Part shown: positions 8,371-19,785 of the stretch, one piece after another
Position numbering within the stretch: the first letter of the stretch is position 1
Layout of the letters: each line of letters starts with the position of its first letter
Notes under the pieces: generated by a model
Databases searched by the model: none
Seen by the model: only the letters and a program-made list of their open reading frames with translations
What the model was told of the DNA's origin: nothing
Program-made: the position numbers and the translations under genes
Virus record (IMG/VR): IMGVR_UViG_3300027983_002388
DNA from: a virus
Lineage: Duplodnaviria; Caudoviricetes
Reading direction: 5' to 3' (one strand)
DNA length: 64,000 bases

Positions 8371-8450
8371 TCCAAACCGCTATAGAAAGCATTGGCTACA
8401 GTAAATCGGGTGATTTAGGGAAAGGTACGTCCTTTCCTTTGGGGAAACAA

Positions 8451-8555
8451 AGACAGCCAGGATGTTGGCCTAGAAGTAGCCAACATTCAAAGAGTAGGGT
8501 TACACAGGGACTTCCTGTTAACGGACCCTTTTGGTGTAATAACACACTGGCCGAG
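8451..8555 (+). ncRNA. Stand-alone mimic of the 23S rRNA GTPase-associated centre (H42-H44, L11-binding domain) with a 38-nt insertion; transcript may span about 8390..8636
   Basis: AGACAGCCAGGATGTTGGCCTAGAAGTAGCCAACATTCAAAGAGT [insert] GTGTAATAACACACTGGCCGAG aligns to 23S nt 1046-1112 (E. coli numbering, from memory) with compensatory changes. Confidence 0.88.
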
Positions 8556-8593
8556 CCACCCAACACTCGACACTGGCAATGCTGGTGCCTGGA

Positions 8594-8837: not shown

Positions 8838-8919
8838 GGCCCTGTGGTGGAATTGGAATACACATGGGACTTAAAATCCCACGCCGAAAGGATTGCGGGT
8901 TCGAGTCCCGCCAGGGCTA
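8838..8919 (+). tRNA. tRNA-Leu(TAA), canonical long variable arm
   Basis: GGCCCTG/CAGGGCT-A, TGGGA-CTTAAAA-TCCCA, GCGGG-TTCGAGT-CCCGC. Confidence 0.95.
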
Positions 8920-8922
8920 CGT

Positions 8923-8951
8923 TTTACAAGATGCCTAAAACGTGGTAAAAC
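8923..8951 (+). promoter_or_regulatory. Sigma70-like promoter for tRNA-Leu(TAG)
   Basis: TTTACA-N17-TAAAAC with TG extension. Confidence 0.5.
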
Positions 8952-8952
8952 T

Positions 8953-9033
8953 GGCCGAGTGGTGGAATGGCATACACGATGGTTTTAGGAACCATTGCCG
9001 CAAGGCTTGCAGGTTCAAGTCCTGTCTCGGTCA
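8953..9033 (+). tRNA. tRNA-Leu(TAG), canonical long variable arm
   Basis: GGCCGAG/CTCGGTC-A, ATGGT-TTTAGGA-ACCAT, variable arm GCC-GCAA-GGC. Confidence 0.95.
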
Positions 9034-9061
9034 CTAATGAGGAATGAGGAATGAGGATACG

Positions 9062-16370: not shown

Positions 16371-17445
16371 ACAGAAAGATGTCCTGAAGCTCTTAGTGGG
16401 CAATATGGACAACCACCAGCAGCAAACTCTTGGTGGATATGCGGGGACAGGAAAATCAACAATTATTCGAGTGATGCTCGACGCCCTTCAACGAAAAGGG
16501 CGATATTTTTGCGCAGCCGCATTTACCGGCAAAGCCACGAACGTATTGCGCAAAAAGGGAATGAATGCCAATACGATTCACAGCACGATATACCAGCCGT
16601 ACAAAGACGAGCATGGCGAAACCGTGTGGTTCTTAGCTGACAAAACTGACTTAGTGTCCAAGGGCATTGACGGCTTCATTATTGATGAAGCGTCTATGGT
16701 GAGCAAGGAAATACACGACGATCTTATGTCGTTTGGCCTGCCAATTATCTATGTTGGCGATCACGGTCAACTTGAGCCTATTGGCACCAAATTCAACCTT
16801 ATGCAAAAGCCAATGTATAAGCTGGAGACGGTTCATCGAAATGCTGGTGAGATTGCATATTTTGCCGAGCATCTTCGCAAGGGCAATTCTGCCAATTCCT
16901 TCATGGGAGCAACGAAGGTTCAGATTGTTCAAGAAAAAGCAATTGAGGATCGACACCTTGCTGCCGTCGATCAAATCATCTGCGCCTTCAATAAGACTCG
17001 TGTGCAACTCAACGAGCGTGTGCGTATCGAGAAAAAGATTCAATATACATTCATTGCCAAAGGCGAGAAGGTCATTTGTTTAAGGAACAATAAGAAGCAG
17101 GGTTTGTTTAATGGGATGCAAGGCGTTGTCCAGAAAATCCACAAGAACGACCGCTTTGACTTTATATCGGATGGCAACTTCTTCGAGAAGGTCCATTACG
17201 ATCCTGACCAGTTTGGAAAAGACTCAAATAAGTTTGAGTTTTCCCAGGCAGCAAATCCATTCGATTACGCATACGCCATCACTTGCCATAAGGCTCAAGG
17301 CGACGAATGGGGCAATGTGATCGTATACGAACAGCGATGCGATAAATGGGATAACGTGCGATGGTCTTATACAGCAGCCAGTCGTGCAAAAAACGGACTG
17401 ATCTGGATCGCTGTAGAAGAGTTCCGACCCAACTATCTAGGGTAA
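16354..17445 (+). CDS. SF1B helicase (Dda/RecD-like)
   Basis: GYAGTGKS, IIDEASM, YVGDHGQL, TCHKAQG, YTAASRA. Confidence 0.9.
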   Translation: MSLTNEQKDVLKLLVGNMDNHQQQTLGGYAGTGKSTIIRVMLDALQRKGRYFCAAAFTGKATNVLRKKGMNANTIHSTIYQPYKDEHGETVWFLADKTDLVSKGIDGFIIDEASMVSKEIHDDLMSFGLPIIYVGDHGQLEPIGTKFNLMQKPMYKLETVHRNAGEIAYFAEHLRKGNSANSFMGATKVQIVQEKAIEDRHLAAVDQIICAFNKTRVQLNERVRIEKKIQYTFIAKGEKVICLRNNKKQGLFNGMQGVVQKIHKNDRFDFISDGNFFEKVHYDPDQFGKDSNKFEFSQAANPFDYAYAITCHKAQGDEWGNVIVYEQRCDKWDNVRWSYTAASRAKNGLIWIAVEEFRPNYLG

Positions 17446-17577
17446 TGTTAAAAGAACCAATCAGTAAATGTGCATCGCATTGGGCTGTGGGCGTACTCGA
17501 CACCAATCGTGCCGAATATTTCAAAGCCAAGAATTTGGAGATTAGTTTACAGATCGCCGAAATCGTGGTATCATCTA

Positions 17578-17606
17578 TCGCAAAAATCAAGCTCCACGAG
17601 TATGAT
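17578..17606 (+). promoter_or_regulatory. Sigma70-like promoter for RNase P RNA
   Basis: TCGCAA-N17-TATGAT, 4 nt upstream of P1. Confidence 0.5.
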
Positions 17607-17610
17607 ATAA

Positions 17611-17891
17611 GGGGATGCAACTTGTCGAGTCGTCGCTGTAATCCCCTCAAGGGGTTGTAGAGGAAGTTCTGGACACTACTGCTTTTAAGGTAGGAGCGAA
17701 AACCTCGAAAGGGGCTAATAGTGTTTGAACTACCGAGGGTGCAAGCCATACAGACCAAAATCTCGTAAGAGGTACGCCGGTGAGCAGGGCGTCATCATGG
17801 TCGGGTCGGTGCAGTCCGCAAGGACCGGGGGCAACTCCGAGATAAATGACGACATAGAACAGAATCCAGGCTATGGATAAGTTGCATCTCC
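17611..17891 (+). ncRNA. rnpB: RNase P RNA with a strongly reduced specificity domain
   Basis: P1 GATGCAACTTGTC/GATAAGTTGCATC, P2, P3, GAGGAAGTTCTGGA...ACAGAATCCAGGCT P4, P5 CAC/GTG, P6 CTGCT/AGCAG, P7 GGTAG/CTACC, P15-P18, AGATAAATGACGAC. Confidence 0.92.
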
Positions 17892-17915
17892 TTTTCAAGT
17901 CAAAAAGGAGATGTC

Positions 17916-18707
17916 ATGCGTGCCGAAATTGTCCACGTTACGGACCACGCTTTGTTGCGATGGAAAGAACGTGCGTCGAAAACAGGTGAAGTCAACGTAG
18001 AAGAAATCGTTCAGGCTGTAAAAGAATCCAAGGTCATCAAAAAAAACGAACCTTTGCCTTACCCGATGCCTCGTTTAGATGGATCAGTTTACAGCTTCAA
18101 TGCCGGAGTGTTGTTCATTCTCGAATCAGTAACCATTGATGAATATCGACTCGTCACAGTTATCGCCGACGAGCCGACCTATCAACGGATTGCTCGACCG
18201 CCGAAGAAACAACTTAATCCTCGAAAGAGACAGAAATACGAGGAAGTTCAAAAGGTGCAAATCGACATTCCTTGCTTTGAAAGTTTCATCGAAGAACGTC
18301 AATGGTTGACCGACGAGAAACGAAAACTCGAAAGTGAACTGGCAACAACAGCGAAGAAATCTTCCACTCGCAAAGAAATATTGAAGGTGTGGGGCGAGAT
18401 TGAAGCCCGACTCACCGAGAACAAACCTCAATATCTCGAAGAGCGGAAAAAATCAGGAGACGGATATGTTGACTATGGTTCTCTTCTTTTGCAAATTATC
18501 AGAGAGTTAAAAGAAATACGCTCTGAACAACAGGAATTACGTAACCTAATCGAAGGCTCCAATGGACAACAACCGAGATCACCGAGCAATCGGAAAAAAG
18601 CTAGACCTCTTCATGTTCAGCCCTCTATCGCCGGGTTGTCCGATCTGGCTCCCGAAGGGAGTTGTGCTTTATCAGTCTTTGCTGAACCGCATTCGTCAAC
18701 TCAATGA
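17916..18707 (+). CDS. Hypothetical protein (VTDHALLRWKER motif, coiled coil)
   Basis: ORF with AGGAG SD; 3' end overlaps thrS. Confidence 0.7.
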   Translation: MRAEIVHVTDHALLRWKERASKTGEVNVEEIVQAVKESKVIKKNEPLPYPMPRLDGSVYSFNAGVLFILESVTIDEYRLVTVIADEPTYQRIARPPKKQLNPRKRQKYEEVQKVQIDIPCFESFIEERQWLTDEKRKLESELATTAKKSSTRKEILKVWGEIEARLTENKPQYLEERKKSGDGYVDYGSLLLQIIRELKEIRSEQQELRNLIEGSNGQQPRSPSNRKKARPLHVQPSIAGLSDLAPEGSCALSVFAEPHSSTQ

Positions 18708-19785
18708 AGCCAATGGTTGCCAAGAAGTTCGGACCCCACTTATATGGAAGTCCGAACTTTATGCAACCAGCGGACACCTGGATCACTATGCAAAAAATAT
18801 GTTCTTCGTCAGTGATAAGCCTGCTGGCGAGTCCCACGAAGAAGGACATGAAGATCAGTGCTTAAAACCAATGAATTGTCCTGGGCATATGGAGATATTC
18901 CGCTCGAAACAGTGGAGCTATCGAGACTTGCCTGTTCGATTCGCTGAATATGGTCCTTTACACCGCAATGAAGTTTCTGGTGCCTTGGGTGGGCTAACTC
19001 GCTGTCGTGCATTCTGCCAGGATGACGCCCACATTTTCGTTTCGCCGGACAACCTACAAAGCGAAATCAAACGAATCCTTGTCATGATCGAAAGAGTTTA
19101 CGGATGGTTTGGAATGAAGTTCCGATCCGTACTCAGCACTCGTCCTTATAACTTCATGGGCGAGAAGTTGGTTTGGGATAATGCTGAGGCGAACCTCGAA
19201 GATGCTTTATGCGAAAATGGATTGAAGTTCGAGATTGCCCATAAAGACGGTGCGTTTTATGGTCCAAAAATAGACTTCATTGTGACTGATTCCCTTGGAC
19301 GTGATTGGCAAACAGCAACAATCCAATTGGACTTCCAGTTGCCTCAAAGATTCGGTTGTACCTATACCGACAAGGACGACAAAGAGCAAACTCCAATTGT
19401 CATTCACAGAGCAATATACGGCAGCTTTGAAAGATTCATTGGTGTATTGTTGGAACATACTGACGGGCATCTACCATTATGGTTGGCTCCTGTTGGTGTA
19501 ACCATTGCACCAATCAGCGACAAAGTTGCTGAATACGCTGATGAGATCAAAGAGGTTTTGCTTGCTCATGGAATTCGGTGTGAATGCGATCACTCGAATC
19601 GAACTCTGCAACAGAAGATTGCCATCGGGTACGATAAAAAAGTACCCTACATGGTCATCTTGGGAGAGAAAGAAAAATCCGCAAGAACCGTTACCCTCAA
19701 ACAAATGAGATCAACTGCTGTCGCACAGGAAACCTTATCTTTGGAAGTATTCCTTCCTCAGATGGTCGCACTGGCGAAAGAGTAA
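18562..19785 (+). CDS. thrS: Threonyl-tRNA synthetase, catalytic and anticodon domains only
   Basis: RDHRAIG, LKPMNCPGH, HRNEVSGALGGLTRCR, AFYGPKID, TIQLDF, VIHRAIYGSFERF. Confidence 0.95.
   Translation: MDNNRDHRAIGKKLDLFMFSPLSPGCPIWLPKGVVLYQSLLNRIRQLNEANGCQEVRTPLIWKSELYATSGHLDHYAKNMFFVSDKPAGESHEEGHEDQCLKPMNCPGHMEIFRSKQWSYRDLPVRFAEYGPLHRNEVSGALGGLTRCRAFCQDDAHIFVSPDNLQSEIKRILVMIERVYGWFGMKFRSVLSTRPYNFMGEKLVWDNAEANLEDALCENGLKFEIAHKDGAFYGPKIDFIVTDSLGRDWQTATIQLDFQLPQRFGCTYTDKDDKEQTPIVIHRAIYGSFERFIGVLLEHTDGHLPLWLAPVGVTIAPISDKVAEYADEIKEVLLAHGIRCECDHSNRTLQQKIAIGYDKKVPYMVILGEKEKSARTVTLKQMRSTAVAQETLSLEVFLPQMVALAKE

Follow-up and report, generated by a model that had tools for sequence, protein, structure and literature searches.

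Only two ribozymes are universal, and RNase P RNA is one of them. To our knowledge, every known bacterial RNase P RNA has a specificity domain (S-domain), and the only natural forms that lack most of it are the archaeal type T RNAs and some organellar RNAs. Type T RNAs are archaeal and cellular, serve as the only RNase P of their organism, work with the protein partners Pop5, Rpp30, Rpp29 and L7Ae, and are devoid of P18 (PMC13462272). According to a 2026 model, their S-domain stub, a stem with one T-loop, still stacks on the tRNA elbow (PMC13462272). Among bacteria, the RNase P RNAs of the CPR were found only below Rfam thresholds and lack P12, P13, P14 and/or P18; the same survey detected only tRNAs and one tmRNA in 536-kb megaphages (PMC8172020). 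A more drastic reduction has been made in the laboratory, as the catalytic domain (C-domain) of the E. coli RNA alone (Eco CP RPR) retains correct cleavage at a roughly 100-fold reduced rate, whether or not the C5 protein is present. This construct needs P6 and P15-P17, and P18 is no longer needed once the S-domain is gone (PMC5839562).

This work describes a miniature RNase P RNA gene of 281 nt, running from P1 to P1 at positions 17611 to 17891 (+ strand) of a 64-kb stretch of phage DNA, hereafter the window. The window encodes tail fibres, a Dda-like helicase, a DnaB-like helicase and DNA polymerase fragments, and its carrier is a huge freshwater phage. Based on a full-model match to RF00010, the proposed base pairs and covariation in relatives, we identify the locus as a phage-borne RNase P RNA of bacterial type A descent. 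It shares with bacterial type A (RF00010; E. coli M1 RNA, rnpB) the same catalytic domain, with P1-P5, the bulged U in P4, CR-I, CR-IV and CR-V, the P6 pseudoknot with L17, P15-P17 with GGU in L15, and a hairpin with a GNRA cap preceding CR-IV. It differs from type A by the absence of P8, P10-P14 and CR-II, by two hairpins in the place of P18, by an extra hairpin (P16.1) and by being virus-encoded. The type A RNase P RNA itself is known; the phage family with a reduced S-domain appears to be new, as no published description of a phage-encoded RNase P RNA was found in a full-text search of the openly accessible literature.

The preliminary description of this DNA had proposed an Infernal search with RNaseP_bact_a as a check, and this search (cmscan, E-value mode) returned an end-to-end match at 17617-17889 (+), covering model positions 1-367, with 53.7 bits and an E-value of 1.5e-15 locally and 1.1e-13 over the whole 64-kb window. 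RF00010 is also the best-scoring model of clan CL00002 for 17611-17891. The score is about half of the RF00010 gathering score of 100, and the locus is consequently missed at that threshold; only six tRNAs are reported in the window at Rfam gathering thresholds. Archaeal type T RNAs have been overlooked by standard searches for the same reason. CR-I, J5/15, L15, CR-IV and CR-V are aligned with high posterior probability, and the core strings AGAUnAAUGA (CR-IV/J18-2) and GCAAG (J5/15) are present on conserved RF00010 positions. When the helices are written out and checked base by base, 87 of 87 proposed pairs are Watson-Crick or G-U. The minimum free energy has a z-score of -4.2, with none of 200 shuffled sequences folding as well.

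The limits given in the preliminary description coincide exactly with the ends of a 16-bp P1, formed by 17611-17626 and 17876-17891, the latter strand being followed by UUUU. All elements below lie on the + strand. P2 pairs 17629-17635 with 17847-17853, and P3 (17636-17660) is a 10-bp hairpin with a CUCAA loop. CR-I (GAGGAAG...) and the 5' strand of P4 occupy 17660-17673. P4 itself, AGU(U)CUGGA / UCCAGGCU, forms eight of eight pairs with the bulged U at 17668, and its three differences from the type A consensus are each compensated on the opposite strand. The 5' strand of P5 (CACU, 17674-17677) pairs with GGUG, which together with the CAA of J5/15 lies at 17738-17744 and forms the GCAAG core string. 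The 5' strand of P6 (CUGCU, 17679-17683) pairs with AGCAG at 17783-17787, within the L17 loop. The P15-P16-P17 module (17745-17810) is built from P15 GCC/GGU, P16 GACC/GGUC and P17 ACGCC/GGCGU, and L15 (GGGUC, 17803-17807) contains the GGU that in type A enzymes pairs with the 3' CCA of the tRNA. The region 17840-17872 holds CR-IV (AGAUAAAUGA), the 3' strand of P2, CR-V (ACAGAA) and the 3' strand of P4 (UCCAGGCU, 17865-17872); this string is nearly identical in the cultured phage DLP6. The complete catalytic domain that had been read from the letters (P1-P5, the P4 bulge, P6, P15-P17 and the L15 GGU) was therefore recovered in full, as was the extra UCUC-GUAA-GAGG hairpin, a variable insert in P16 at 17761-17772 (P16.1). 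A single P18 with a GCAA loop had also been proposed. The GCAA hairpin is present, yet it is one of two adjacent ones at the P18 position (17814-17839), namely GUCC-GCAA-GGAC (17814-17825) and CGGGG-GCAA-CUCCG (17826-17839).

In the place of the S-domain lies a stub of 46 nt (17689-17734), consisting of P7 (GGUAG/CUACC), GA, a GCG/UGU helix, AAAA, the capped hairpin CCUC-GAAA-GGGG, CUAAUAG and UUGAA. P7 (GGUAG from 17689, CUACC from 17730) encloses 36 nt, in agreement with the first estimate of about 36 nt with one GAAA hairpin. The S-domain of RF00010 (P8-P12 with the CR-II/CR-III T-loop module) is not found in the alignment: model blocks of 15, 15 and 110 positions are replaced by 16, 16 and 24 unaligned bases in the phage RNA, the 24 bases standing for the 110-position block. 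The stretch enclosed by P5 measures 60 nt in the window RNA and 6-70 nt in nearly all phage members described below (one has 108). For comparison, at least 39 cellular RNase P RNAs with the same CR-IV/CR-V signature were collected from genome contigs; among the matches listed with an unambiguous P5 anchor, this stretch measures at least 103 nt and typically 150-213 nt. CPR RNAs resemble the phage RNA in being bacterial, found only below Rfam thresholds and short of several helices, but they keep the S-domain core, the smallest Patescibacteria sampled having about 112 nt within P5 among the matches listed. Judged by this alignment, the S-domain is reduced to a conserved 46-nt stub. A supply of the S-domain by a separate gene was considered and rejected, as no such gene was found in the 64-kb window or in the complete relative G001.

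Structure is conserved within the stub as well. Across seven members of similar length, pairing in P7, the 2-bp helix and the capped hairpin is complete (100%), whereas shuffled controls give 77.9% (none of 500 reaches the observed value). Covariation scores 0.589 compared with 0.224, controls slid along the sequence pair 30-48%, and six of the 11 pairs show compensatory changes. MAFFT with RNAalifold applied to 13 stubs of unequal length yielded no structure, the short members being mis-registered. Conserved unpaired strings are the GA after P7, a GAA opposite A(G/A/U)UA, which we take to resemble a loop-E or S-turn core, and UUGNA before the 3' strand of P7. These pairing statistics indicate that the stub is under structural selection, and its conserved structure means that some tRNA contact may remain. 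The S-domain loss claimed at the outset thus holds for P8, P10-P14 and a recognizable CR-II, whereas the total absence of T-loops is not proven: UUGAA at 17725-17729, which is UUGNA family-wide, is one base off the CR-III string TGAAAC named in the preliminary description. This string is the one caveat to the preliminary description. Given the conserved unpaired strings and the type T model, an enzyme blind to the tRNA elbow is not established.

The likeness to type T extends to a type-A-like C-domain, P6, P15-P17 and an S-domain of roughly one stem between P7 and a capped hairpin. The phage RNA differs from type T by its bacterial descent (RNaseP_bact_a being the best clan model), by residing on a bacteriophage alongside the host enzyme and by the hairpins at the P18 position. 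A second likeness links it to Eco CP RPR, likewise a type A C-domain without the S-domain. The needs of that construct (P6 and P15-P17, with P18 dispensable) match what the phage family keeps and what its smallest members lose. Engineered C-domains, however, are laboratory deletions with about 100-fold lower rates, whereas the phage RNAs are natural and carry a stub and several GNRA loops. The phage RNAs may have compensating contacts that are absent from engineered C-domains.

Relatives were collected with short sequence signatures. An exact search with the CR-I/P4 17-mer identified eight viral contigs. In four of these, RF00010 matches stretches of 261-300 nt below its threshold, and two of the four matches lie within tRNA arrays. 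Two loci (L005 and L007) are syntenic relatives of the window phage with 80-86% DNA identity, and a search with the flanking helicase for related loci recovered only these two. A further relative, L001/L009, comes from a complete 533-kb phage whose version of the RNA measures 238 nt. A CR-IV/CR-V pattern added eight loci from metagenomes, and a looser form of this pattern gave 78 viral loci. After filtering, 25 distinct family cores from phage contigs and metagenomes were retained. The cultured Stenotrophomonas phage DLP6, one of the relatives collected, has a 249-nt full-model RF00010 match of 54.7 bits (105774-106022), located in an unannotated gap of a tRNA cluster with its 3' end 3 nt before tRNA-Arg. 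When 29 records were scored with RF00010, at least seven obtained a score; the prefilter drops most members, such as L027, which nonetheless has a perfect P4/P2 signature. BLASTn of the window RNA against 50,697 GenBank phage records gave no match because the RNA family is too divergent for BLAST.

We define the family by the CR-IV to CR-V pattern GAUAAAUGA-N6-AGAACAnAAU, the bulged U in P4, a P2 of 7 bp, a fixed P6 register, a P5-enclosed stretch of at most 70 nt and a location on phage contigs, usually among tRNA genes. The window RNA displays every one of these features, its closest members being L007, L005, L014 and L009. Family RNAs form a natural size series from about 164 to 349 nt. At the lower end, four ultra-minimal members (L101 (G031 1545-1710), L102, L034 and L055) of about 164 nt score 63-67 bits on RF00010; their P5 loop of 6-8 nt is the 5' strand of P6, and P7, the stub and P18 are absent. 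At the upper end, a sister group (L003 2209-2502, L006 9675-9974, L013 1123-1435 and L015 916-1264) has 294-349 nt and 76-89 bits, the same P4 as the window RNA, a larger S-domain remnant and another P15-P17 layout, and is located in dense tRNA arrays. A 200-nt mini RNA was also observed at 182484-182683 of G008, a complete 184-kb phage with terminal repeats, at 4 nt and 12 nt from the flanking tRNA genes. Co-transcription of this RNA with its substrates is probable, in which case RNase P would have to cleave to release the downstream tRNA.

Selection on the catalytic fold was assessed with anchored, alignment-free pairing tests on the 25 family cores. P4 forms eight of eight pairs around the bulged U in all 25 members, in ten sequence types; P4 pairing is bimodal, as chance co-occurrences of both P4 motifs pair at no more than five of eight positions. 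P2 is fully paired (7/7) in all 25 members and occurs in 13 sequence types. P3 always spans precisely the interval from P2 to CR-I, as a hairpin of 10-43 nt closing at its own ends. P1 pairs at 7.7 of nine positions within a sequence and at 5.4 of nine across sequences. P6 has 12 sequence types with a summed Watson-Crick length of 68, compared with 49.4 +/- 2.9 in 500 shuffles (maximum 57; z about 6). This P6 test counts Watson-Crick pairs only, summed over the family, as a scan that allows G-U pairs is indistinguishable from shuffles. The P6 register is nearly fixed, with one side 0-2 nt after P5 and the other, unless P16.1 is inserted, 21-22 nt after J5/15. The GGU of L15 is invariant across the family. 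RNAalifold on the five sequences of group A, the window's own type, recovers P1, P2, P3, P7, the stub and both 3' hairpins and counts 17 compensated pairs, and the second hairpin at the P18 position shows the compensatory series CGGAG/CUCCG, CAGAG/CUCUG and CAGG/CCUG.

P4 also contrasts with that of cellular RNAs. Among phages it varies freely, in ten fully compensated forms that include the pairs beside the bulged U, whereas it is nearly fixed in the sampled cells, with the canonical P4 in 39 of the 39 cellular RNase P RNAs listed. P6 and P15-P17 are kept in every family member. P16.1 is extended in L007, whereas L005, L014 and L009 lack it, the GNRA hairpins at the P18 position are missing in the smallest members, and indels among relatives fall only in peripheral hairpins. 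We conclude from these comparisons that compensatory evolution has preserved the catalytic-domain elements in no fewer than 25 distinct phage sequences and that the locus is a real, probably active ribozyme. A protein-coding reading was rejected, since the overlapping ORFs at 17279-17898 are broken by indels among relatives.

The sub-threshold Rfam score and the large internal deletion might suggest a non-functional relic, either a host rnpB that was captured and is being eroded by deletions, or a fragment retained as an integration site. We regard such a relic as extremely unlikely. Both halves of the C-domain are intact, the promoter is conserved, no integrase adjoins the gene, indels stay within peripheral hairpins, and compensatory changes occur in P1, P2, P3, P4, P6 and P7 across phages whose flanks no longer align. 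The compensated pairs and the covariation exclude a decaying pseudogene.

The function that we consider fairly probable is that of an active ribozyme that, together with host RnpA, matures pre-tRNAs, chiefly those of the phage itself. Under this proposal, the phage would make its own working RNase P ribozyme of type A descent from 17611-17891. The RNA would be transcribed from its own extended -10 promoter, fold through P4 and P6 braced by several GNRA loops, bind host RnpA via the conserved face of P2-P3 and CR-IV/CR-V, and remove 5' leaders from pre-tRNAs, above all from the dozens of tRNAs of the phage. Substrates would be placed mainly by the acceptor stem, by the contact between leader and RnpA and by L15 after CCA addition, and the stub may add a weak T-arm contact. 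The gain would be extra processing capacity, or independence from host rnpB expression during takeover. The roughly 100-fold lower rate of the engineered C-domain counts against a clear benefit over the host enzyme.

No match to RnpA (PF00825) was found in four related phage records, among which the complete 533-kb genome, and use of host RnpA is therefore plausible. The same observation, together with the conserved RnpA-binding face of the C-domain and the poor catalysis by C-domain-only RNAs (PMC5839562), would also suit a decoy or competitor that binds host RnpA or pre-tRNA leaders and depresses host tRNA maturation without any need for catalysis. This role seems improbable to us, because the bulged U of P4, the CR-I/IV/V core, P6 and the L15 GGU would be needless in a decoy, yet they are under strong purifying and compensatory selection, and because the phage needs its many tRNAs matured.

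Expression of the RNA as an independent gene is suggested by a promoter-like site at 17546-17574 (+), composed of TTTACA, a 17-nt spacer and the TG-extended -10 element TGgTATCAT (10 of 12 consensus positions, TG present). A second -10-like element, TATGAT, lies at 17601-17606 (+), just upstream of the RNA 5' end. TGgTAT(C/G)AT or TGgTACAAT is found upstream in all five group A members, directly before P1 in L009. The exact RNA sequence is absent from the RNA runs searched and present only in DNA metagenomes. Contigs of 169-334 nt from a relative (< 90% identical) occur in three metatranscriptome libraries and run past P1 into the next ORF, which we take as a weak hint of expression.

The tRNA genes of the window were examined as potential substrates. 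Rfam reports six (163-239, 1805-1881, 1959-2130 and 8838-9034) and ARAGORN four, all four ARAGORN calls being tRNA-Leu with short variable arms. None of the six encodes CCA, and five have a single C after the discriminator; the L15 GGU may consequently not act on primary transcripts. The T-arm is canonical in all six, and the D-loop GG is present in most. It had been suggested beforehand that the reduced ribozyme suits non-canonical tRNAs encoded in the window. This finds no support in the canonical T-arms, nor in the presence of family members in ordinary tRNA arrays such as that of DLP6, and none of these tRNAs demands a relaxed recognition. Relatives inside tRNA arrays lie 3-12 nt from tRNA genes, and carriers have 59, 47 and 37 tRNA matches, while one complete phage without a detectable copy has 60.

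Another reading holds that the ribozyme has an altered specificity and acts mainly on non-canonical substrates (phage polycistronic transcripts, tRNA-like or hairpin structures, host RNAs) or on phage tRNAs that are poor substrates of the host enzyme. In its favour, P10-P14 and CR-II have been lost, simple hairpins are cleaved by C-domain constructs (PMC5839562), the window gene lies 8.5 kb from the nearest tRNA and beside protein genes, and P1 overlaps the ribosome-binding hairpin of the next ORF. Most relatives' genes are nevertheless embedded among ordinary tRNA genes, the window tRNAs have canonical T-arms, the conserved stub may still contact the T-arm (PMC13462272), and the L15 GGU, which reads the tRNA 3' end, is invariant. 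Weighing both sides, we deem altered specificity unlikely and retain the maturation of ordinary pre-tRNAs as the preferred function.

The overlap with the next gene concerns an alternative 11-bp hairpin, CAUCUCCUUUU / AAAAAGGAGAUG, at 17885-17913 (+). The final 7 nt of the P1 3' strand also take part in this hairpin, and the Shine-Dalgarno site of the next ORF, which starts at 17916, lies within it. Formation of this hairpin and of P1 is either/or, and the same either/or pairing is found in L007, L014 and L009 despite different P1 sequences. Through this hairpin, folding or processing of the ribozyme may be linked to translation of the downstream ORF. A mir-873 match at 17885-17913 was dismissed as spurious, as it reflects the alternative hairpin.

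The ORF itself (17916-18707, 263 aa) has no Pfam or PHROG match, and a protein Atlas search with it returned only noise. Its conserved N-terminal domain of about 85 aa is predicted to fold like RelE/ParE/YafQ toxins and DUF4258 (pLDDT 78). These fold matches are weak (TM at most 0.62, PDB E-value about 5e-3) and derive from a moderate-confidence model built on six sequences. The ORF lies at most about 25 nt downstream of the RNA in all five group A members and in L104, where it is split into ORFs of 74 aa and 181 aa, and is absent at the loci of other family members, including DLP6. This protein, with its small-RNase-like fold, is the candidate if the ribozyme partner were a phage protein and not RnpA. 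The close linkage, the ribosome-binding site that can pair with the P1 3' strand and the RelE/ParE/YafQ and DUF4258 fold matches speak for such a partnership, which we still judge very unlikely. Because the other family loci lack the ORF, its product can be no general partner; moreover, the fold matches have the weakness stated above, and the linkage may be plain synteny among related phages.

If maturation of pre-tRNAs with host RnpA is indeed the function, tRNA 5' maturation would join the translation functions that large phages supply themselves. The family would then show, through natural examples already tested by evolution, to what size a type A ribozyme can shrink and by which contacts the S-domain can be replaced, and routine Rfam thresholds would systematically miss such genes in phage genomes. 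The cultured carrier DLP6, which grows on Stenotrophomonas maltophilia, makes the family directly testable. A more far-reaching proposal, which we put forward as a rather doubtful one, is that of a large-phage RNase P lineage without canonical tRNA-elbow recognition, whose size series would map the minimal RNase P. This lineage would be independent of RnpA or use a phage partner (such as the RelE/DUF4258-like protein), and would provide private tRNA maturation with altered substrate rules when host RNase P is limiting, excluded or attacked.

Two further translation-related sequences were observed in the window. Near the RNA gene, an ORF at 18562-19785 encodes a class II aminoacyl-tRNA synthetase with a core domain and an HGTP anticodon-binding domain, a neighbour that fits the proposed role in tRNA maturation. 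Since the ORF as listed shares 146 nt with the one preceding it, translation probably begins further downstream. At 8442-8561, a stand-alone match of 38.6 bits covers approximately positions 1074-1162 of bacterial 23S rRNA, the GTPase-associated centre, and such a match also occurs in L016 (7238-7371).
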